Positions 12 through 27,262 are shown, counted from the stretch's first letter. The stretch: DNA of 46,616 nt from Candidatus Levyibacteriota bacterium (GCA_018061205.1 JAGOUP010000001.1:1-46616), one strand, 5' to 3'. Translations and numbers: made by a program. The notes: generated from the letters alone by a model not told the origin.

Positions 12-78
12 TGTCATCCTGAACTCGTTTCAGGATCTTTTTGTATGGACGAGATTCCGAAATAAATTCGGAATGACA
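12..78 (+). repeat. double-hairpin mini-element, copy 1 (tgtcatcctgaa..ttcaggatc / attccgaaataaattcggaatgaca)
   Basis: Hairpin 1 atcctgaa-N5-ttcaggat, hairpin 2 attccgaa-ataaa-ttcggaat, terminal inverted tgtcat/atgaca. Ends 5 nt before the first CDS. Confidence 0.8.
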
Positions 79-4838: not shown

Positions 4839-4865
4839 TTATATCACCCTTAAGTATTCTTGTTC

Positions 4866-5018
4866 GTGGTTCCCGCCATTAGGAGCACGCGTGAAGAAAA
4901 TGCAACGACTGAGCGTTAAGAAAATGGAACATTTTTAGTGAAGAAGGAAGTATTTTTAGCGCGCGCACGCTGGCGAATGCTTTTGGTACTTTTACGCTAA
5001 AAGTACAAGAAAGAAAAA
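4866..5018 (+). repeat. composite repeat family C, copy 1 (short form)
   Basis: gtggttcccgccattaggagcacgcgt ... gcgcacgctggcgaatg..ttttggtacttttacgctaaaagtacaagaaagaaaa. Shares both ends with the copies at 9558 and 21449. Confidence 0.8.
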
Positions 5019-9535: not shown

Positions 9536-9557
9536 TCTGTCAACATTGATCTTTTTG

Positions 9558-9745
9558 GTGGTTCCCGCCATTAGGAGCACGCGTTAAGAAAATGTGACGA
9601 GTGAACGTCCCGTAGGGAAAAAGAGATAGGCGGAGCGAAACGCAGTGAGCGCAGTCCGTCTTTTTAGTGAACGAGGAAGCATTTTTAGCGAGCGCACGCT
9701 GGCGGAGGCTTTTGGACACTTTTGCAGTAAAAGTGTCAGAAAATA
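9558..9745 (+). repeat. composite repeat family C, copy 2
   Basis: Same termini plus a central gataggcggagcgaaacgcagtgagcgcagtccgtc module. Same orientation as the other copies. Confidence 0.8.
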
Positions 9746-12707: not shown

Positions 12708-13476
12708 AGGAAATCATGTTTTTAAAAATTTGGAGTCCGTGTGGTTTTGTGATGTTTGTTCTTCTCCAATTTGGGTGTTGTTGCGTTTGAACAAAACATT
12801 CAGGATGGGGCATAAGACCCAAAATTCTGCCACTTGTATCAGTGACTCCGCCAATTGCATTGAGTGCCCCATTTGGATTTTCAGGATAGTGTTGTGTTGG
12901 GTTACTCGCATTATCAATATAGCGAAACGCAACCAGATTATTTTCTTCTATTTGTTTGAGTGTTTTATTATCAGTGAAGAATTTTCCTTCGCCATGAGCC
13001 ACAGGATAGAGGACGTGCTTTTCTTGCATGTCTTGCAGGAATACACATCGACTTTTCTCAATTTTGAGTGGTACCCATCGGCATTCAAAATGCCCGGAGT
13101 CATTATTCGTCAAAGTAACAGACATAGTTCCTACATTTCCAAATGGCAAGAGTCCTGTTCGAACCAATGCTTGAAACCCATTACAAATACCAATCGTTAA
13201 CGTATCTTTCCGATTGATAAATGTTTGCAGCTCATTTTTGAAAAATGACGTCAGTTCTGTTGCTAAGATTTTCCCAGATGCGATATCATCACCATATGCA
13301 AAACCACCAGGGATGGCGAGGATTTGATAGTTTTTAAAACTATCTTTTTTTGCACGTAAATCATTGATATGTACAATAGCTGCATTTCCTCCAGCAATAT
13401 CAAATGCATACTTCAATTCCACATCCCGATTGATCCCATCCGCGAGTAATACTAATACTTTCGGTTTCGTTTTCAT
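12691..13476 (-). CDS. purQ: FGAM synthase glutaminase subunit
   Basis: 261 aa. Class I GATase with GICNGFQ nucleophile motif and HPE near the C-terminus. Adjacent to purL. Confidence 0.9.
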   Translation of the reverse strand: MKTKPKVLVLLADGINRDVELKYAFDIAGGNAAIVHINDLRAKKDSFKNYQILAIPGGFAYGDDIASGKILATELTSFFKNELQTFINRKDTLTIGICNGFQALVRTGLLPFGNVGTMSVTLTNNDSGHFECRWVPLKIEKSRCVFLQDMQEKHVLYPVAHGEGKFFTDNKTLKQIEENNLVAFRYIDNASNPTQHYPENPNGALNAIGGVTDTSGRILGLMPHPECFVQTQQHPNWRRTNITKPHGLQIFKNMISYVKKA

Positions 13477-13505: not shown

Positions 13506-16331
13506 TCAAGAAAAAAGTTCCTTCATCGGCTTCTGCCAAGCCATCTTCAAATCTTCAAGCTTTACACTGAAAAGATTTTTGACTTCAATCGTTTTCTCTT
13601 TTTGTGTTTTACCCATCACCATATAGGGAATACCCTTAAACAAACCCTTAGCAACCCTTTCATTTGCTACTTCTACAACAAAACATCCTGCAGTTTCATT
13701 GAACAGTAGTTTCTCGGGATTTTTTTCTTTCAGAGTTATTGTTGCTCCCATTTCTCCACCAACACACATTTCAAAAATTGTGGTGATGATGCCTCCTTCA
13801 CTCACATCATGACATGAGAGGATTTTTCCATTACCAATTCCTTTATAAATACTGTTAAATAGTTGGGGTAATTTTTGTAGATCTGCTTTTGGTACTGATG
13901 TGCCCAGAGTTTTATTGATGTCATAATAAATAGAACCACCTAGTGAATCATCTGGTCTGCCGACGAGGCAGATAACAGAATCTGTTTTCTTGAAATCAGT
14001 AGTTTGTGTTTTTTGAATATCTTTTATTCTGCCAAAAGCAGCAATACCCAAAACAGGTGGAATTTTTAAAACCATGCCATCTTTTCCTCTATATGTTGAA
14101 GAAAGACTATCTTTTCCTGAAATGACAGGTGTGCCAAATGTTTTCATCAAATCAATCACTGCATCCACACTGCGATCAAGTGTCCACAGACTTTCTTCAT
14201 CAGGAAACGGCCACACATAATTATTTATCAGGGACGTCTCTTTATAGTTTCCTCCTACCGCCACCAGGTTACTGAGTGCTTCAACACCTGCCCATATACT
14301 GCCCCAGTATGGATCTATGTTATTTAAAATCGGATTGATACCATGAGAAACAATCATGCCATATGGTTTGTTGAGTAGGGGACGAATGACTGCTGCATCA
14401 TTTGGTCCATCCATTTTTTCTCCACTGTATGGTGCCACAATGCTCGTTCCTTGTACACTATGATCATACATGCGAACAATCGGTTCCTTCGAACAAACAT
14501 TCCCATGAGAAAGGATTTTTTCTACTGTGGTAATCCATTCTTTTTCTGTTTTTGGTCCCTTCGGCTCTCTTCCCTTAATTCGTAATTCGTAATTCGTAAT
14601 TCTTTTTGCCGTCATCTGTCTTTGTGGTAGTCCATGATGTAAAAATTCCATATCTAAATTACATACGACTTCTTTTTTATAGAGCACTTCGAGTTTTTTT
14701 GTTTTCGTAAATTCACCCAAGAGGGATACTTCGACATTATATTTTTTTGCCACTGTTTGAAATGCTTTTATTTTGTCCTTTGGAATTGCTAGAACCATAC
14801 GTTCTTGTGATTCAGCGACCCATATTTCCCAAGGAGACAGACCAGGATATTTTAATCGTTCATGTTCTAGGTGTACACGAATGCCAGTTGTAGCGCCGAT
14901 TTCACCAACAGCTGATGAGAGACCACCGCCTCCGCTATCTTGTATTGCTCTGATCAAATTTTTATCTCGTGCTTCAAGTATCAAATCAGCAACTCGTTTT
15001 TCTTCAATTGCATTTCCTATTTGTACTGCTTGAGCATTCACATTGATTGTTCTCTCAGTCATCTCTGCACTCGAGAATGTCGCACCATGAATGCCGTCTC
15101 TACCGACTCTGCCCCCTATGCTGATCACGACATCTCCAGGTTTTGGTTTTCCTATTTGTGCTGTTTTTTTAGGGAGTATACCATATGCACCAACGAGGAC
15201 TGTGGGTTTTGCTCGAAAATCATCGTGAAAATGAAATGAACCATTATTCGTTGGTATACCGATTCGATTGCCATAATCTCTCACCGCTGCAACTACTCGT
15301 TTTAAAATATACCGGGGAGGGAGACAGCCGGGAGGTAATGTCTCTGATGACAAATCAGGAGGAGCCAGACAGAAGACATCTGTTGAAACGAGTGTCTTAG
15401 CACCTTGTCCTGTTGCCATGACATCTCGGAATACACCGCCACTGCCAGTCATAGCACCACCGTATGGTTCAATAGCAGATGGAGAGTTGTGAGTTTCTGC
15501 TTTTCCGCAAATTGCATAGCCATCATAAAAATCCATAACACCTGAGTTGTCGACAAATGCTGAGACGATATGTTTTTTATGTTTCCATGCTTCTTTTTGA
15601 ATACGTTTAATAAACGGCATTTTGCTGTTTCCATCAACAGTGAGTGCTGCTTTAAATGTTTTATGCCCTGAATGTTCACTCCATGTTTGTGCAATTGTTT
15701 CTATTTCGCAATCAGTTGGGTCTCGTTTTAAATGTGAAAAATATGTTTGGATGACTTTTATTTCTTCTAAATTTAAAAAGAGTTTATCTTTGGAAAGTGT
15801 CAAAAGTTCATCATCACTCATATCCCGTAGTGGAATTGTTTCTGTTTTTCCAACACTACCTTTAATTACTAACGTTTTAGGATTTTCAGTGACGATATGT
15901 TCGACAAGTTTGTTGTAGAGGTTTAATTTTGTAATAATGTCGATGGTTTTTTCTTTGTTGACGCTTCCATAGAATCCATATTCACGACTGGTATCAGCAG
16001 CTAAAAGTTTGATGCCTAAATCGTTTGCTGCTTTGAGAATTGAAGCAACTTCAGGATTCATAACACCTGGTTTATATGCTATTTCGATGACTTCTCTTGC
16101 ATCAGTGATCAGTGGTGTGTCTATGGAATATTTTTGATTGATAGATTCAGCAAAAAGTGTTTGAGCCAAAATTTTTACTTGTGCTTTTTCTATCCCTTCA
16201 ACCCTGTACACTTTTGTCGTCTGTATTTTTTTTACATCCGTATTGTGCAAAAAATGTTGTATATCAGACAACACTCCTTCTCCCAAAAGATCCGGTCCTT
16301 TTACTGTTTGTACTCGAATTGTATGCACCAT
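13506..16331 (-). CDS. purL: FGAM synthase II with two N-terminal PurS-like domains (PurS-PurS-PurL fusion)
   Basis: 941 aa, against about 740 aa for a small PurL. Residues 1-75 and about 80-150 each resemble PurS. The core carries PurL blocks (ETHNSPSAIEPYGGAMTG, GKDSLS). Carries an in-frame heptamer-repeat insert. Confidence 0.85.
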   Translation of the reverse strand: MVHTIRVQTVKGPDLLGEGVLSDIQHFLHNTDVKKIQTTKVYRVEGIEKAQVKILAQTLFAESINQKYSIDTPLITDAREVIEIAYKPGVMNPEVASILKAANDLGIKLLAADTSREYGFYGSVNKEKTIDIITKLNLYNKLVEHIVTENPKTLVIKGSVGKTETIPLRDMSDDELLTLSKDKLFLNLEEIKVIQTYFSHLKRDPTDCEIETIAQTWSEHSGHKTFKAALTVDGNSKMPFIKRIQKEAWKHKKHIVSAFVDNSGVMDFYDGYAICGKAETHNSPSAIEPYGGAMTGSGGVFRDVMATGQGAKTLVSTDVFCLAPPDLSSETLPPGCLPPRYILKRVVAAVRDYGNRIGIPTNNGSFHFHDDFRAKPTVLVGAYGILPKKTAQIGKPKPGDVVISIGGRVGRDGIHGATFSSAEMTERTINVNAQAVQIGNAIEEKRVADLILEARDKNLIRAIQDSGGGGLSSAVGEIGATTGIRVHLEHERLKYPGLSPWEIWVAESQERMVLAIPKDKIKAFQTVAKKYNVEVSLLGEFTKTKKLEVLYKKEVVCNLDMEFLHHGLPQRQMTAKRITNYELRIKGREPKGPKTEKEWITTVEKILSHGNVCSKEPIVRMYDHSVQGTSIVAPYSGEKMDGPNDAAVIRPLLNKPYGMIVSHGINPILNNIDPYWGSIWAGVEALSNLVAVGGNYKETSLINNYVWPFPDEESLWTLDRSVDAVIDLMKTFGTPVISGKDSLSSTYRGKDGMVLKIPPVLGIAAFGRIKDIQKTQTTDFKKTDSVICLVGRPDDSLGGSIYYDINKTLGTSVPKADLQKLPQLFNSIYKGIGNGKILSCHDVSEGGIITTIFEMCVGGEMGATITLKEKNPEKLLFNETAGCFVVEVANERVAKGLFKGIPYMVMGKTQKEKTIEVKNLFSVKLEDLKMAWQKPMKELFS
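14576..14603 (-). repeat. 7-bp tandem repeat (attacga on the coding strand) x about 4 inside purL
   Basis: Coding strand aga att acg aat tac gaa tta cga att aag gga = RITNYELRIKG. Confidence 0.9.
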
Positions 16332-16336
16332 AAACT

Positions 16337-16364
16337 CTTAATTCGTAATTCTTAATTCGTAATT
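16337..16364 (-). repeat. 14-bp unit cttaattcgtaatt x2, filling the purD-purL spacer
   Basis: Same aattacgaattaag motif as in purL and at the purF start. Confidence 0.85.
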
Positions 16365-17716
16365 CATAAATTTTTCTCCAGCTCCCCCCATCCGATATCT
16401 GTTCGGAAATGTAAGTTATTCCCCTCAATATATATCATGGACATTGCTGCATACGCAAGTTGTCTTGCTTCTTTGATATCTTTTCCTTCAGCCATGACAT
16501 GAAAGAGTCTTCCTCCATTTGCAAAAAACTTCTTTCCTTTTCTTTTTACTCCGGCTCCATAGATTGTTACTCCAGAAATCTTCATAGCTTCTTCCAGTCC
16601 AAAAATTTCCTTACCAATTGTTTTTTTATAATCACCCGGATATCCAAATGAAACTCCACAGACACTCAATCGTTTTTTGTTATCGGACACAATTTTTAAT
16701 TTTGAAAGTTTTTTATGGATGACTGCGTTGACGATATCAACATAATCATTTTTGATAGCAGGAACTAATACTTCGGTTTCTGGATCTCCCCATCTTGCAT
16801 TAAATTCAATTACTTTGACACCGCTGGTTGTGAGCATGCCACCGAGATATAATACCCCTGAGTAAGGTCTATTTTCTTTTTGCATACCTATCATAAAAGG
16901 CTGCAAGATTTTTTCCTCCACTTCTTTTATGACGATTGGTGTAATTATTTGGGGATTTGATACACATCCCATGCCGCCAGTATTGAGACCTTTATTTTTG
17001 TTATACACTGTCTTATGATCTTGTGCAGATCCGATAATTGTATACTCTTTTCCATCGCACAGAGCAAAAAGAGAAAATTCTGAACCTTTGAGTTCTTGCT
17101 CTATAACAAATGTATCGCCTGATTTCCCAAACTCTTTCATTCCGTTGATGGCATCAATAGCTTGCTGTTTATTCTCAGATCGAATGACACCTTTTCCCCC
17201 AGCAAGACCTGCTGCTTTAATAAAAAGTACTAAATTTTTGTCATTCTGGAGCGAAGCGATAGAATCTTTTTTATATAACTTATTTACATAGGTTATTGCT
17301 TTGTTAGCATCCGAAAACGTTTCGTATTGTGGAATAGGCAATTGATATTTTTTCATAAAATCTCTCGCCCATGCTTTATCCCATTCTATTTGAGCGGCTT
17401 TTTTTGTTGGCCCAAAAGTTGCTATATTTTCCTCAGTAAATTTATCGACGTACCCTGCCCCTATGATGTCATCTTGAGAAACATCAACAAAATCTATCTT
17501 TTCTTGTTTACAGATTTTTAATACTGATTTAAAATCCCCAACAGCAACATCCGGATAATTTTTTATTTTTCTGTCAAGTCCTGAGCTTGTCGAAGGATTA
17601 TAATCAGTTAATCCGTTGCCGGGGATCATGATAATTTTTTTGACTTTCTTGCTCTTACTATATGCTTGGGCCAATGCATGTTCTCTTCCATTACCAGTGA
17701 GAATCAAAATATTCAT
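16364..17716 (-). CDS. purD: phosphoribosylamine-glycine ligase
   Basis: 450 aa. GNGREHAL, AAGLAGGKGV and ATP-grasp blocks. Two repeat-derived in-frame inserts. Confidence 0.9.
   Translation of the reverse strand: MNILILTGNGREHALAQAYSKSKKVKKIIMIPGNGLTDYNPSTSSGLDRKIKNYPDVAVGDFKSVLKICKQEKIDFVDVSQDDIIGAGYVDKFTEENIATFGPTKKAAQIEWDKAWARDFMKKYQLPIPQYETFSDANKAITYVNKLYKKDSIASLQNDKNLVLFIKAAGLAGGKGVIRSENKQQAIDAINGMKEFGKSGDTFVIEQELKGSEFSLFALCDGKEYTIIGSAQDHKTVYNKNKGLNTGGMGCVSNPQIITPIVIKEVEEKILQPFMIGMQKENRPYSGVLYLGGMLTTSGVKVIEFNARWGDPETEVLVPAIKNDYVDIVNAVIHKKLSKLKIVSDNKKRLSVCGVSFGYPGDYKKTIGKEIFGLEEAMKISGVTIYGAGVKRKGKKFFANGGRLFHVMAEGKDIKEARQLAYAAMSMIYIEGNNLHFRTDIGWGELEKNL
17239..17266. repeat. single-hairpin element variant inside purD
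   Basis: tgtcattctggagcgaagcgatagaatc. Translated in frame as DSIASLQND. Confidence 0.7.
17572..17598. repeat. tcctgagcttgtcgaagga hairpin inside purD
   Basis: tgtcaagtcctgagcttgtcgaaggat. Translated in frame as NPSTSSGLD. Confidence 0.7.
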
Positions 17717-19734
17717 AACGTAGATAATTTCTGCAACGCTTCAATGTAGAGAGCGTTTTCTTTCTTTTTTAAACGTGCATACAAAGAATCCACTGTGTCA
17801 TCTTTTTTTATTTTTTCAAATGTTCTACCCAACACAGGTCCAAAATCAACTTCTTTGGTGAGAAAGTGAATTGTCGATCCAGCATAGGTTGCACGATTAT
17901 CCAAAAAATTTTGTAGTGCTTTATTCGTGAACTTTTTTTTATTCCACAATCCTTTTGTTCCATCAGGATTTTTCACAACACCATCAATCGTATCGGGAAT
18001 GAGCCCTGGATGAAGATTAAGTATTTGATTGGAAAATATTTCTAATACCTCAGATGACAAAAATTGTTTCCATCCTGTGAGAACAATATAATCAACAGTG
18101 TGTTTTTTTAAAAGTTTTACTAGAGAACCTTTTTCTGTATTAATTTCTGTTGGAATACGATGTTTTTTTGCGCGAACGAGTCCAAATGCATCTTTCTCAT
18201 CACTGATAACCACAGCAATTTTAGCGTTAATTTTTTTATTTTCAATCCCATCAATAATTGCTTGCAAGTTTGTTCCGCTTCCTTTGTTTGAGACAAGCAC
18301 AGCAAGTCTTGGCTTATGAGAAAAAGTGGGAATGACCTGCATCACTTTTGCCCCTTTCAGTTTTTTGATATTACTTCCTATATCTATTGGATACTCTCCA
18401 GTAAAACAGGAAGTACAGAAAAGATCCTCTGGCAATTCAGTTGCGTTGATCAATCCTGACAGGGAAAGGTAATAGAGTGAATCAGCGCCAATAAAGTCTT
18501 TCACTTGCGTGACTGATCTGTGTGATGCAATGAGTTCTTTTTGTGTTGGCGTATTAATACCATAAAAATCAGGAAACTTGACGGGTGGACTGCTACTAAT
18601 GACATGCACTTCTTTCGCTCCTGCATCTCGCATCATCATCACGAGTTTTTTTGATGTTGTTCCCCTTACAATTGAATCATCAACCAATATTACTCGTTTC
18701 CCAGCAATAAGTTCTTTTATTGGATTGAGTTTCATTTGTACACTTCTATCTCGCATTTTTTGATCCGGCATAATAAAGGTTCTACCGATATATCTATTTT
18801 TTGTGAGTGCATGATCACAGGGAAGACCCAATGCTCTGGCATAACCTACTGCTGCAGGAATTGAAGAATCAGGAACTGGGATTACAACATCAGCTTTTAT
18901 CGGATATTCTTTTGCCAATTCTCTTCCTAAATTTTCTCGTACTTTATACACATTTTTTCCAAGCAACATACTATCAGGTCTCGCAAAATAAACCATTTCA
19001 AAAATATCGAGCTTTTGATTCGCCGTGGCAAATTGATATGAGTGGAGTCCTTTTTCATCAACTACTACCATTTCTCCAGGATTTACTTCTCGGATATAGG
19101 TTGCATTTACCATATCAAGCGCACATGTCTCAGATGCAAAAATATATCCACCGTTTAGTTTTCCAATACAAAGTGGCCTGATACCAAAAGGATCTCTTAT
19201 TGCTGCTAGTTTGTTTTTGCTCATAACCAGCATGGAATATGCACCTGTAAAAAGTGGAAGTGATTCTAAAATTGCATCTTCAAGGGTATATTTTTTAACC
19301 AAATAATACTTGATGAGCATATGCATCAGTTCTGAGTCATTGCTTCCTTTGATATGGATACCCAGTGTTGAAAGAAATCTCGCTAGTTTTGTTGTTGTTG
19401 GAAGATTACCATTATGAGCTAAAGCGATGCTATCGTTTTTGGTGACCACTGGTTGTATATGTTCTGGACTGGTTCCACCGGAGGTTGCATAGCGATTATG
19501 TCCAATTGCCATATCTCCTTTTAGTTTTTTCAGAACATCTTCAGAATAGACTTGTGTAACGAGTCCGGATCCTTTATGGAAAGACAACTGTTTTCTATTG
19601 CTGCTGACAATACCTGAACATTCCTGTCCTCTATGCTGCAATGCAAAAAGACCAAAATAGGTAAGCCTCGCAGCATCCATACCCTTTCCAAAAACTCCAA
19701 AAACCGCACACTTTTCCCTTAATTCGTAATTCAT
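17713..19734 (-). CDS. purF: bifunctional amidophosphoribosyltransferase / GAR formyltransferase (PurF-PurN fusion)
   Basis: 673 aa. N-terminal Ntn-GATase with CAVFGVFG after an 8-aa propeptide, PRTase loop VILVDDSIVRGTT, CTSCFTGEYP. The C-terminal ~195 aa show PurN blocks (SGTNLQAIIDGI, NLHPGLIP, GSTIHFLTKEVDFGPV). Confidence 0.85.
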   Translation of the reverse strand: MNYELREKCAVFGVFGKGMDAARLTYFGLFALQHRGQECSGIVSSNRKQLSFHKGSGLVTQVYSEDVLKKLKGDMAIGHNRYATSGGTSPEHIQPVVTKNDSIALAHNGNLPTTTKLARFLSTLGIHIKGSNDSELMHMLIKYYLVKKYTLEDAILESLPLFTGAYSMLVMSKNKLAAIRDPFGIRPLCIGKLNGGYIFASETCALDMVNATYIREVNPGEMVVVDEKGLHSYQFATANQKLDIFEMVYFARPDSMLLGKNVYKVRENLGRELAKEYPIKADVVIPVPDSSIPAAVGYARALGLPCDHALTKNRYIGRTFIMPDQKMRDRSVQMKLNPIKELIAGKRVILVDDSIVRGTTSKKLVMMMRDAGAKEVHVISSSPPVKFPDFYGINTPTQKELIASHRSVTQVKDFIGADSLYYLSLSGLINATELPEDLFCTSCFTGEYPIDIGSNIKKLKGAKVMQVIPTFSHKPRLAVLVSNKGSGTNLQAIIDGIENKKINAKIAVVISDEKDAFGLVRAKKHRIPTEINTEKGSLVKLLKKHTVDYIVLTGWKQFLSSEVLEIFSNQILNLHPGLIPDTIDGVVKNPDGTKGLWNKKKFTNKALQNFLDNRATYAGSTIHFLTKEVDFGPVLGRTFEKIKKDDTVDSLYARLKKKENALYIEALQKLSTL
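19718..19734 (-). repeat. aattacgaattaagg motif forming the first codons of purF
   Basis: ATGAATTACGAATTAAGGGAA = MNYELRE. A 19-nt match to the purL-internal copy. Confidence 0.8.
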
Positions 19735-19745
19735 AATACTTACCT

Positions 19746-19812
19746 TGTCATCCTGAACTTGTTTCAGGATCTAGTTTTATATATGAGATGCTGAAATAAA
19801 TTCAGCATGACA
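19746..19812 (+). repeat. double-hairpin mini-element, copy 3 (overlaps the purC 3' end)
   Basis: tgtcatcctgaacttgtttcaggatct-N13-agatgctgaaataaattcagcatgaca. Both arms are identical to the purK-internal copy. Confidence 0.9.
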
Positions 19813-21379: not shown

Positions 21380-21448
21380 GCGTATACAAATTTATACCAC
21401 ATTTCTTTTTAAATAGAAAGATATCGTTTTGCTCGGTGTAATTTATTT

Positions 21449-21654
21449 GTGGTTCCCGCCATTAGGAGCACGCGTTTATCCTGAGCTTGCCGAAGGATTA
21501 AAGAAATGTGTCGAGTGAGCGTGAAAAAAAGAGATAGGCGGAGCGAATGCATATGAGCGCAGTCCGTCTTTTTAGCGAACGAGAACACATTTCTAGCGAG
21601 CGCACGCTGGCGAATGTTTTTGGTACTTTTACGCTAAAAGTACAAGAAAGAAAA
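21449..21654 (+). repeat. composite repeat family C, copy 3 (with nested hairpin)
   Basis: Fills the purK-purE spacer and abuts the purK stop codon. Confidence 0.8.
21477..21498. repeat. tcctgagcttgccgaagga hairpin nested in composite repeat copy 3
   Basis: Present only in copy 3 of the 150-200 bp repeat. Flanked by TTA on both sides. Confidence 0.8.
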
Positions 21655-21656
21655 TT

Positions 21657-22859
21657 TTAGATACTAATTAGTCTTCTAGCTTTTTTTACTCTTTTCAAAC
21701 ATATTTCAAGTGATGGACCAATACTTGTTATATGTCCCATTTTTCTCTCCATTTTCGTTTCTGCTTTTCCATACATATGGATGCTGACTCCTGGGATTTT
21801 GAGAGCTTCTTCTAGTCCTTTTATTTTTGCTGTTCCATTTCGTTCTCCTAAAATATTTATCATCACAGCAGCAGGGGTTTTCATGAGAGTTCTCCCTAAC
21901 GGTAAACCTGTTACTGCCCGAATATGTTGTTCAAACTGTGATGTGATAGATGACTCTATCGTTACATGGCCACTATTATGAACTCTGGGTGCAATTTCAT
22001 TCACCAAAATTTGAGCTTGCCCTGAGCTTGTTGAATGAGTCAGGAACATCTCTATTCCAAAAACACCTGCACCTTTGAGGTGCTGCATTACTTTTTTTGC
22101 CAAGCTTTCGGCTTTTTTGCTGAGTGGTTTACTGATAGGTGCTGGAGCGAGTACTGTTTGTAAAATATTATTTTTGTGAATCGTTTCAACAACAGGAAAT
22201 GTTTTGATTTTACCAGTGAGACTTCTGACTGCAATAATCGCCAATTCTTTTTCAAAGGGGATAAATTTTTCAACATACAACTCATTACCTTTCAGTTTTT
22301 CTAACCCTTTTGTAATATCATTTTGAGTTTTAACAACAAAATTTCCCCTCCCATCATAAGCACCAGTTTTTGCTTTAAGGAGGAAAGGATAATTGATTCT
22401 CTTTGCTATTTTTTTGATGTCATCCTGAACTTGTTTCAGGATCTCTACATTGCTTTTTTTAGATGCTGAAATAAATTCAGCATGACAAGAAGGTATGTCC
22501 ACAAATTCAGCAACAGGAATTCCTGCTTTTTTCAGAAAGACTTTTTGTTCATATTTATCTTTTATCATTCGGAGTGTTTGCGGAGAAGGGTTCACTGTAA
22601 TCCCTTTTTGTTTTATTTCTTCCAAAAGCTCCGGGTTGGCCAATTCCCAGTCGAAAGTCATAAAGTCTGAAAGATGTGCCAATTCCCACATTGCTTTTTC
22701 ATCATTTAAATCAGCAACAATCTGTTTATCCGCGAGTTGTCCAGCAGGTGATTTTGGTGTCGGATCCAAAATTGTAACGGTAAAACCTAGGTGTTTGGCA
22801 GAAGGGATCAGCATACGGGCGAGCTGTCCACCACCAACAATACCTATTCTATTTTTCAT
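21657..22859 (-). CDS. purK: N5-CAIR synthetase
   Basis: ATP-grasp fold. IGIVGGGQLARML, AKTGAYDGRGNF, NEIAPRVHNSGH. Start moved to ATG 22859 (MKNRIGIVGGGQ). Contains a 70-bp repeat element read in frame. Confidence 0.9.
   Translation of the reverse strand: MKNRIGIVGGGQLARMLIPSAKHLGFTVTILDPTPKSPAGQLADKQIVADLNDEKAMWELAHLSDFMTFDWELANPELLEEIKQKGITVNPSPQTLRMIKDKYEQKVFLKKAGIPVAEFVDIPSCHAEFISASKKSNVEILKQVQDDIKKIAKRINYPFLLKAKTGAYDGRGNFVVKTQNDITKGLEKLKGNELYVEKFIPFEKELAIIAVRSLTGKIKTFPVVETIHKNNILQTVLAPAPISKPLSKKAESLAKKVMQHLKGAGVFGIEMFLTHSTSSGQAQILVNEIAPRVHNSGHVTIESSITSQFEQHIRAVTGLPLGRTLMKTPAAVMINILGERNGTAKIKGLEEALKIPGVSIHMYGKAETKMERKMGHITSIGPSLEICLKRVKKARRLISI
22011..22042. repeat. degenerate gagcttg-type hairpin remnant inside purK
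   Basis: ttgagcttgccctgagcttgttgaatgag. Translated as HSTSSGQAQ, the same STSSG frame as in purD. Confidence 0.45.
22418..22487 (+). repeat. double-hairpin mini-element, copy 4 (entirely inside purK)
   Basis: tgtcatcctgaacttgtttcaggatct-N16-agatgctgaaataaattcagcatgaca. Read through in frame. Confidence 0.9.
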
Positions 22860-24258: not shown

Positions 24259-24848
24259 AAAACGTTTACGCCGAATTTTTTTAGCGATGGGATGATTTTA
24301 CTCAATGGTAATCCCACTACATTATAGAAATCTCCATCAATATGTTCAAGGAGTACTGCCCCAATTCCTTGGACACCATACCCTCCTGCTTTGTCCATTG
24401 GTTTTTCTATTTTGAGATATGTTTTTATTTCTGCATCACCCAGTTTTCGAAAGGTAACTTTTGTTTCCACAGAATCGGTATGTGTTTTTTTGAGTTTATT
24501 ATCCAAAAGGGTAAAACCAGTGATAACACTATGTGTTTTTCCTTGCAGTTTTTTTATCATACGTCGAGCATCATCCATATTTCTTGGTTTACCCAAAATC
24601 TCTCCCTTACTATCTATAATCGTATCAGCTGCGATGATAATAGCATCTGGATATTTTATTGCCACCGTTTGCGCTTTTTCTAAAGAAAGCTCTTCTGCTT
24701 GGCCTTTTGGTTTGAGTCGAGGATTGAGTTTTTCCTCGATATTACTTGGGACAGTCGTAAAAGATAATCCTATTTGTTCCAAAAGTTTTTTCCGTCTCGG
24801 TGATTGCGATGCTAAAATAATCTGCCTCATATCTTTCTCCCTTGTCAT
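24255..24848 (-). CDS. maf: Maf-like nucleoside triphosphate pyrophosphatase
   Basis: 197 aa. ILASQSPRRKKLL, IIAADT, KAGGYGIQ-like (KAGGYGVQG) motifs. The first ATG lies in a repeat hairpin, so ATG 24830 (MRQIILASQSPRR) is an equally good start. Confidence 0.85.
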   Translation of the reverse strand: MTREKDMRQIILASQSPRRKKLLEQIGLSFTTVPSNIEEKLNPRLKPKGQAEELSLEKAQTVAIKYPDAIIIAADTIIDSKGEILGKPRNMDDARRMIKKLQGKTHSVITGFTLLDNKLKKTHTDSVETKVTFRKLGDAEIKTYLKIEKPMDKAGGYGVQGIGAVLLEHIDGDFYNVVGLPLSKIIPSLKKFGVNVL

Positions 24849-24869
24849 CCTGAACTTGTTTCAGGATCT
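24843..24869. repeat. solo hairpin 1 (tgtcatcctgaacttgtttcaggatct)
   Basis: Exact 27-nt match to hairpin 1 of the composite element. Overlaps the first ATG of maf. Confidence 0.85.
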
Positions 24870-27234: not shown

Positions 27235-27262
27235 TGTCATCCTGAACTTGTTTCAGGATCTC
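27235..27262. repeat. solo hairpin 1 (tgtcatcctgaacttgtttcaggatctc)
   Basis: Exact match. Lies in the purA/dnaG divergent intergenic region. Confidence 0.85.

Follow-up and report, generated by a model that had tools for sequence, protein, structure and literature searches.

How a purine biosynthesis gene comes to take its last codons and its stop codon from a dispersed repeat, and whether it matters that the same peptide is read from the same repeat inside a second gene of the cluster, are the questions raised by the junction of purC and purF described here. The junction lies in the window, by which we mean the whole stretch of 46,616 nt that was analysed, corresponding to contig C9 of a host genome of 707 kb (109 contigs, 74% complete, 38% G+C). 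On the minus strand of the window, the genes purB, purK, purE, purC, purF-purN, and purD follow each other in this order (Table 1). PurC homologues from public sources name relatives within the Microgenomates (Roizmanbacteria, Daviesbacteria, and Gottesmanbacteria), and the host is, therefore, considered a CPR bacterium.

Table 1. Features of the purC-purF junction and related repeat copies, with positions counted from the first nucleotide of the window.
Feature	Position	Strand	Remarks
purC (SAICAR synthetase), 328 aa	19777..20763	-	Pfam SAICAR_synt, E = 1.9e-65
purF-purN fusion gene	17713..19734	-	Start MNYELREKC; ATG at 19734
67-bp head-to-head heterodimer of two 26-nt REP-type hairpin units, probable insertion	19746..19812	-	TGTC tags outward
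Arm 2 (5' on mRNA), TGTCATGCTGAATTTATTTCAGCATC	19787..19812	-	Encodes C-H-A-E-F-I-S-A + 2 nt of S
15-nt spacer, mRNA strand tcatatataaaacta	19772..19786	-	Rest of Ser, His, Ile, TAA
Arm 1, + strand TGTCATCCTGAACTTGTTTCAGGATC	19746..19771	+	Between purC stop and purF ribosome-binding region
11-nt flank AGGTAAGTATT	19735..19745	-	purF Shine-Dalgarno region; presumed ancestral purC AGG + TAA
Sister doublet, 70 bp, in frame inside purK	22418..22487	-	Arms identical to purC copy; spacer unrelated
Third doublet in window, intergenic	12..78	.	Arms CCTGAA + TCCGAA
Single unit, head abuts ribosome-binding site of next minus-strand gene	24843..24868	+	Same family
Single unit, TGTC hairpin family	27235..27260	+	

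The end of purC is encoded by a hairpin doublet

A preliminary description of this DNA had assigned the last 11 codons of purC and its TAA to an element copy at 19746-19812, with a gap of 42 nt between purC and purF. Coordinates and gap length are exactly as claimed, and the codon map agrees with the assignment, the codons being contributed by one arm of the element and the adjoining spacer. On the minus strand, positions 19812-19777 read TGT CAT GCT GAA TTT ATT TCA GCA TCT CAT ATA TAA, corresponding to CHAEFISASHI* and, thus, to residues 318-328 of PurC. Both arms of the doublet share the layout TGTC-AT-N-CTGAA-loop-TTCAG-N'-AT-C; the new purC stop codon (19777-19779) sits in the spacer between them, and arm 1 is present on the pur mRNA as its reverse complement, GATCCTGAAACAAGTTCAGGATGACA. 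The gap from the TAA to the purF ATG (19776-19735) is composed of 5 nt of spacer, the 26-nt unit, and 11 nt of flank. Hairpin 1, which had been said to fill this gap, does lie there (19771-19746), although with its 26 nt it covers only most of the 42 nt. The sequence aaggtaag upstream of the purF ATG turned out not to be the terminus of the element, since the unit ends in ...GATGACA (19746), so that aaggtaag comprises one element base (A) and flanking DNA. Judging from the sequence, this flank most likely holds the last codon and the stop codon of the ancestral purC (AGG TAA), both of which also form part of the ribosome-binding region of purF.

The two arms are exact copies of the 2 commonest variants in the genome (31 and 26 copies), and the number of chance matches of either arm in the window was 0.00 (100 shuffles). 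The sequence of arm 1 recurs five times within the window, while the 26-mer of arm 2 recurs in purK (22462-22487), identical at 26 of 26 bases and read in the same frame (SCHAEFISASKKSNVEILKQVQDD), confirming that the peptide CHAEFISAS is common to both proteins. Compared to PurK of a relative (L002), the purK doublet results in a net gain of 20 aa. PurK furthermore contains a second insertion, of 5 aa, at residues ~274-282 (window about 22010-22040), where HSTSSGQAQ is found instead of KDGK in a relative; the corresponding DNA (TCAACAAGCTCAGGGCAAG) looks like a unit in decay, with ...TSSG as its reading frame and the TGA lost.

The unit belongs to an abundant repeat family with a heads-out doublet architecture

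Throughout the 707 kb, the pattern TGTCAT-N-CTGAA-N3-7-TTCAG-N-ATC was matched 112 times, compared to 0 matches for the reversed control, and a looser search revealed approximately 135 units, forming 42 doublets and 51 singles, which corresponds to about 1 unit per 5 kb. An enrichment of the repeat in the pur cluster was considered as well and rejected, as the density in the window (approximately 1 unit per 5.2 kb) equals the genome average. All 42 doublets are oriented heads-out, i.e., with the TGTC ends outward, and their spacers range from 2 to 36 nt and vary in sequence. Heterodimers account for 41 of the 42 doublets, while random pairing would give 35% homodimers; the usual pair, which is also the one at purC, consists of GCTGAA with the loop TTTAT and CCTGAA with the loop CTTGT.

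Across the 22 distinct variants, the 8-bp stem (ATNCTGAA/TTCAGN'AT) is 98.9% paired, and double-sided changes occur at 3 of the 8 pairs, a value reached by 0 of 500 shuffles. This covariation includes C-G, G-C, and U-A at one pair as well as U-A and C-G at another. Loops are 5 nt long (CTTGT, TTTAT, or CTCGT). The tag is TGTC in all distinct variants but one, a single GGTC copy, with G2, T3, and C4 being invariant. On the other side of the stem, the unit tail consists of an invariant C followed by T (90-96%) and then C or A, and beyond the head, the strand carrying TGTC is rich in pyrimidines and poor in G.

Shared frame and stop codon follow from the unit sequence

Gene positions of 93 elements were determined with a crude longest-ORF map, according to which 56 are intergenic, 14 lie near ORF starts, 16 are inside ORFs, and 7 overlap ORF ends. 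The placement in unidirectional, convergent, and divergent spacers corresponds to background proportions, and many unit heads directly abut the ribosome-binding site of the next gene in the same way as at purF. A total of 8 ORFs end inside a unit or doublet, 7 of which stop three codons into the unit at the TGA of TGTCATCCTGA (LSS*, MSS*, VSS*, or LSC*). ORF-end units are found at C26:7965-8031, C63:3320-3391, C15:1948, C19:6433, C68:2611, and C88:3474, and in the case of C26, a single doublet terminates two convergent ORFs, one in each arm. The only ORF that enters a unit in the CH frame and stops in the spacer is purC.

Inside ORFs, units are read as CH(A/P)E(F/L)(I/V)S(A/G)S or, in the opposite orientation, as E(I/M)(L/P)KQV(Q/R)(D/H)D. 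The other open frame, VILNLFQD, is never used inside ORFs of this genome, and the remaining frames contain a TGA. The frame shared by purC and purK, to which attention had been drawn, is therefore real, but it is not a coincidence in need of explanation, CH.E..S.S being the only head-to-tail frame found inside ORFs. Similarly, the spacers do differ between the two copies, being open in purK and containing a stop in purC, as noted before, yet the selection after insertion that had been proposed on these grounds is not needed: spacers vary across all 42 doublets, and of the 84 read directions, no more than 16 are open in this frame. With stops in 81% of doublet read-throughs, the stop in the purC copy is the expected default, and no reshaping of the spacer after insertion has to be assumed. 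The open purK copy has survived selection against disruptive insertions, with intragenic copies representing the surviving open subset. Both the shared frame and the stop thus result from the unit sequence and purifying selection.

Comparison with relatives points to an insertion ahead of the original purC stop

Among 120 aligned homologues, PurC is conserved up to YPIE.RI..N, after which a short variable tail follows. Homology stops at or before residue 306 in solved PurC structures and at or before residue 319 in the genomes of 18 relatives. A CHAEFISAS-like tail in repeat-free PurC proteins, which had been named as the observation that would speak against a repeat origin, was not encountered: CHAEF-type peptides occur in the PurC tails of 0 of 119 homologues, neither such a tail nor a unit is present at the purC end in any of 18 related-genome loci, and 0 of 21 related loci (the 3 contigs with the closest homologues and the 18 genome loci) have a unit near the purC end. 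The structure predicted for PurC by AlphaFold2 (mean pLDDT 90.2) has residues 311-321 in the terminal helix, residues 321-328 average a pLDDT of 60, and residues 326-328 remain below 50, a prediction that fits a tolerated appendage at the C-terminus.

Relatives with adjacent purC and purF genes show either a stop-start overlap (ATGA, or 8 nt) or a gap of at most 5 nt. When 19746-19812 is removed in silico, the junction reads ...ATC ATT CAC AAC AGG TAA gtatt ATG, and PurC would end in ...IIHNR-stop, 5 nt before purF. We therefore infer an ancestral purC end ...N-R-TAA and an expected empty site in which ...CACAAC is directly followed by AGGTAAGTATTATG, with AGGTAAG presumably being old sequence that still bears the predicted purF ribosome-binding site. 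The insertion boundaries and the ...N-R-TAA end are thus presumed ones, the nearest relatives being at approximately 82% PurC identity (81-82% for the closest homologues, from 3 contigs). In metagenome contigs, the predicted empty junction (ATCATTCACAAC-N0-30-ATTATGAATTACGAA) had 0 matches, and a scan of metagenome contigs for any purF gene with the same N-terminus likewise gave 0 matches. Since head flanks are purine-rich genome-wide, the AGG might also have come with the element or mirror a target preference. Furthermore, the reconstructed tail would be no longer than the shortest tails among the homologues (11 residues after YP).

The start of purF is in register with its relatives: at a position that is conserved, PurF begins with an 8-residue propeptide followed by the catalytic Cys (MNYELREKC compared to MSERLREKC and MQKLQEKC in relatives). 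It should be noted that the same region contains heptamer repeats (ATTACGA/ATTAAGG), which are present at 3 sites of the window (19711-19742, 16330-16361, and 14567-14598), and that the purF start, ATTATGA-ATTACGA-ATTAAGG-GAAAAG, has 19 of 20 nt in common with a segment inside purL. Therefore, a second repeat family touches the purC-purF junction, adjoining the hairpin doublet. Another repeat family of 60-100 nt (GTGGTTCCCGCCATTAGGAGCACGCG ... GCGCACGCTGGCG) has 3 copies beside purine/guanine genes (window 4858-4986, 9550-9715, and 21441-21623).

Several further observations concern the purC end of relatives. In one of them (locus L150 of genome G005), a different palindromic element of ~120 nt (fold -41 kcal/mol) lies 6 nt after the purC stop and is bounded by TGTCAT...ATGACA, representing an independent occupation of the same gene end with the same termini. 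Moreover, domain fusions in the pur cluster vary among close lineages: besides the PurF-PurN fusion of the host genome, PurC-PurN fusions exist in some relatives (P0005 and P0015, 522 and 548 aa), and at 2 loci (L138 and L143 of G011 and G016), purC runs on as a longer open frame of 697 and 508 aa.

A tolerated insertion is a more probable explanation of the junction than a useful RNA

Taking these results together, we consider it very probable that a REP-type doublet was inserted at the end of purC, that the tail is a by-product of this event, and that the family is kept, probably, together with an Ssn-like nuclease (see below). According to this model, the doublet would have inserted one codon ahead of the original purC stop, so that translation would pass from ...IIHN into the first arm in the CH-A-E-F-I-S-A-S frame and continue into the spacer, where it would stop at a chance TAA. 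The old ...N-R-TAA end would thereby have been pushed 67 nt downstream, with AGGTAAG still serving as the purF ribosome-binding region. The new 11-residue tail, predicted to be in part an extension of the helix and otherwise poorly ordered, would replace a tail that is short and variable in relatives, and we regard it as a by-product of a tolerated insertion rather than an adaptation. Between the purC stop and the purF start, which were presumably once about 5 nt apart or overlapping, there would now be 42 nt with a stable hairpin, and the ancestral tight coupling of both genes would be lost. Ribosomes on purC would have to open arm 2 and would terminate 6 nt ahead of arm 1, which may then fold 5' of the purF AAGG.

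The same arrangement could be read differently, namely that the doublet has been kept as a useful RNA that processes, stabilises, or attenuates the transcript or uncouples purF translation and, thereby, sets the ratio of the enzymes. The predicted structures are compatible with this: on the mRNA, the 67 nt could fold either into a single hairpin that is long but imperfect (-25.3 kcal/mol) or into a pair of small hairpins (-19.3 kcal/mol together; -9.7 for arm 2 and -9.6 for arm 1), and the junction RNA is more stable (-27 kcal/mol, z = -4.0) than all of 200 shuffles. The purC stop lies 6 nt before a hairpin that has the purF Shine-Dalgarno region at its foot, and many REPs have been argued to act as RNA elements downstream of ORFs (PMC3733652). 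However, the junction copy is only one of approximately 93 elements that are placed at background proportions, and as 0 relatives have a unit at the purC-purF junction, the placement is not conserved. Furthermore, the hairpin is devoid of a U-tract on the sense strand; a search for a sense-strand terminator at the junction found none, and the only terminator-like call was arm 1 on the antisense (+) strand. Therefore, we think it unlikely that an RNA function accounts for the doublet, and favor the tolerated insertion.

The repeat family is probably linked to a small GIY-YIG nuclease

With respect to the maintenance of the family, a known precedent is provided by the small GIY-YIG nucleases of the SsnA type, for which such hairpins, in single-stranded form, are binding sites, with strand-specific cleavage a few nt upstream of the motif (Chenal et al. 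2025, Nat Commun 16:2388, PMC11893778). Binding and cleavage of the Ssn-related motifs (SRM; NTS in Neisseria) depend critically on the 3 bases preceding the palindrome and on the C that follows, the proteins are assigned to the cd10448 clade, an ssn gene usually has copies of its own motif on both sides, hundreds of motif copies occur per genome, and a role of the Neisseria Ssn system in transformation has been shown (PMC11893778). In the host genome, contig C90 contains an ORF for a GIY-YIG protein of 97 aa (12852-13142; Pfam GIY-YIG, E = 3.4e-17), for which NCBIfam gave a weak GIY-YIG match and PDB a UPF0213 protein (E = 0.009). This ORF is bracketed by identical TGTCATGCTGAACTTGTTTCAGCATC units with their heads outward, at 12815-12840 (+) and 13170-13195 (-). 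The closest homologues in 5 relatives (G006, G009, G002, G039, and G001) are also located beside TGTC/CGTC hairpins, which have their own stems, and one of these hairpins is near the Neisseria motif (ATTCCCGCGAAAGCGGGAAT). Unit numbers are higher in those relatives that have a close homologue (Mann-Whitney p = 0.0004, Fisher p = 0.03, uncorrected for phylogeny), and the rank correlation between the homologue and the unit count across relatives is weak (rho = 0.26, p = 0.11, likewise phylogenetically uncorrected).

The published SRM pattern, HGTCWYN(0-2)YYVSBRHN(0-5)WNVSBRGN(0-2)RNCYNB (PMC11893778), fits only 1 of the 135 units, while its head (HGTCWY) and tail (RNCYNB) modules fit 85 of 135 and the stem fails at the S/V positions. 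The pattern misses the host units because their stem is AT-rich, whereas a G+C-rich stem is required by the pattern, and we therefore do not claim literal membership in the SRM. Nevertheless, the host units resemble SRM in that their head is of the HGTCWY type and the palindrome is immediately followed by a conserved C, and a single-domain GIY-YIG gene of ~95 aa with its own motifs on both sides, as found on C90 and in the 5 relatives, resembles an Ssn cassette. A link between the host repeat family and an Ssn-like GIY-YIG nuclease therefore appears probable, and the family may have been maintained or spread together with this small putative single-strand DNA nuclease. A second small GIY-YIG gene is located at C53:6343-6585; it has no TGTC hairpins beside it and, instead, a direct repeat (CAATTTTCAATCAATGTTTCAA.ATATTAATTTTCAAA) on both sides. 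Its product of 87 aa is presumably UPF0213/YhbQ-like.

Alternatively, the doublets could be REPINs or MITEs moved by a transposase, either a RAYT (Y1_Tnp) or a DDE enzyme that would recognize TGTCAT...ATGACA as inverted termini. The inverted-doublet architecture would suit such a mechanism, and a Y1_Tnp gene does exist in the genome (C77:1115-1789, E = 1.8e-11). Yet this gene is flanked by its own long palindromes and not by TGTCAT units, 0 of 13 Y1_Tnp loci in the host and its relatives have a unit within ~1.5 kb, unit counts and Y1_Tnp counts do not correlate (rho = 0.12, p = 0.47), and the tag is TGTC rather than GTAG. Target-site duplications of 2-9 bp are no more frequent than expected by chance. 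Moreover, half-elements are as common as doublets, and because the spacers are not conserved, doublets are not copied as fixed units. An origin as RAYT/REPIN was rejected on account of the unit-free Y1_Tnp loci and the absence of a copy-number correlation, and so was a DDE-type MITE, for which inverted termini are present without target-site duplications; overall, mobilization by a transposase seems very unlikely. The Y1_Tnp (IS200/RAYT-like) gene on C77 is the only one in the assembly, and the palindromes around it (C77:1060-1840, ...TATTTGTAAGGCCTGGCCTTACAAATA...) are found nowhere else in the genome, so that it corresponds to the TIR-flanked tyrosine transposases of Di Nocera 2013.

Finally, a junction created by the assembly, i.e., a repeat-induced mis-join or a collapsed repeat, is hardly credible even though the metagenome-assembled genome is fragmented (109 contigs, 74% complete) and short repeats can confuse assemblers, as the order purK-purE-purC-purF(-purN)-purD across the element matches independent contigs of relatives, the flanks on both sides align in register with the ends of purC and purF homologues, and the 67-bp repeat is below typical read length.

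The unit occurs in many bacterial lineages

The unit is present in 19 of 41 related genomes, mostly of the same family, in 1-36 copies, with the host genome having by far the highest number. A scan of one genome per species revealed at least 120 stretches with the unit (L017-L136). Among the matches listed, many CPR lineages are represented as well as Alpha- and Gammaproteobacteria, Treponema, Bacteroidota, Nitrospirota, Melainabacteria, and others; near-identical 26-nt units with the same loops occur in more than 10 phyla, and the exact 26-nt unit was found in the genome of a Rickettsia endosymbiont. N and N' are complementary in 128 of the 136 matches listed, and the same loops recur.

Discussion

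The junction would represent a clean, base-resolved case of a selfish hairpin repeat replacing the C-terminus and the stop codon of a gene, and of a repeat separating two translationally coupled genes in a host whose genome has hardly any DNA to spare. For annotation, this implies that internal or C-terminal peptides like CHAEFISAS, CHPELVSGS, and EILKQVQDD in CPR proteins should be regarded as repeat-derived and not as conserved motifs. Going further, TGTC doublets with AT-rich stems might be active non-autonomous elements that spread as single-stranded DNA by means of Ssn-type GIY-YIG nucleases and were missed by the published search, a proposal that we put forward tentatively and consider doubtful. 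If it were true, the remodelling of gene termini and operon junctions by doublets would be a regular event in streamlined CPR genomes. In the host genome, the family provides stop codons for 8 ORFs and in-frame peptides for further ORFs (16 elements inside ORFs on the crude ORF map), and the near-unchanged 26-mer in more than 10 phyla would point to a horizontal spread of nuclease-plus-motif cassettes.

Among the known repeat classes, the BIMEs of E. coli and the REPINs of Pseudomonas resemble the host units in combining two inverted REP types (compare the Y and Z REPs) in addition to singlets, and in being located mostly just after stop codons. However, BIMEs and REPINs have a GTAG tag and REP-flanked RAYT genes, whereas the host units have TGTC and are not associated with Y1_Tnp. 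The Rickettsia palindromic elements, which Ogata and colleagues reportedly described in 2000 and 2002 as lying in frame in housekeeping genes and being tolerated as surface peptides, are likewise palindromic repeats in frame in such genes and are said by these authors to be always read in compatible frames. RPE-1, a single long palindrome of ~100-150 bp, is longer than the 26-nt host unit, and the Rickettsia elements lie within genes, whereas the purC doublet occupies the 3' end of its gene and has taken the place of the stop codon.

The closest correspondence is to another class. Based on its sequence, the element fits the CGTC/TGTC-tagged REP superfamily, a known and widespread class that includes RPE-4 and RPE-6 of Rickettsia conorii and dRS3 of Neisseria, and in which the unpaired tag at one end of a short stem-loop is CGTC, TGTC, or CCTC, with TGTC instead of CGTC being common (Di Nocera, De Gregorio & Rocco 2013, BMC Genomics 14:522, PMC3733652). 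These repeats have stems of 8-9 bp starting with A-T and T-A, loops of 4-5 nt, and the tail consensus CCA; they are interspersed, mostly as head-to-head dimers, including heterodimers with variable spacers, while head-to-tail dimers are negligible, and no dedicated transposase is known for them (PMC3733652). They also occur at ORF ends and inside ORFs (RPE-4 and RPE-6, encoding 20-30 aa), and a stop supplied by the repeat terminus has been described only for GTAG REPs (PMC3733652). The purC units share with this class the unpaired TGTC tag, the 8-bp stem starting with AT, and the 5-nt loop, and the host family shares the high copy number, the head-to-head dimers and heterodimers with variable spacers, and the copies in ORFs and at ORF ends. 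They differ in the unpaired tail (C-T-(C/A) compared to CCA), in the AT-rich stem (CTGAA/TTCAG), in the very high density in a CPR (Microgenomates) genome of less than 1 Mb, and in that the purC stop stems from the dimer spacer (TAA), unlike the repeat-terminus stop of the published GTAG REPs. Our literature search found no REP or MITE descriptions specific to CPR/Patescibacteria, and the CGTC/TGTC-REP (Ssn-motif) class would hereby be extended to a Microgenomates genome, with approximately 1 unit per 5 kb. No new mechanism is revealed: this is a known REP class in a new host lineage and an ordinary remodelling of gene ends by selfish repeats.
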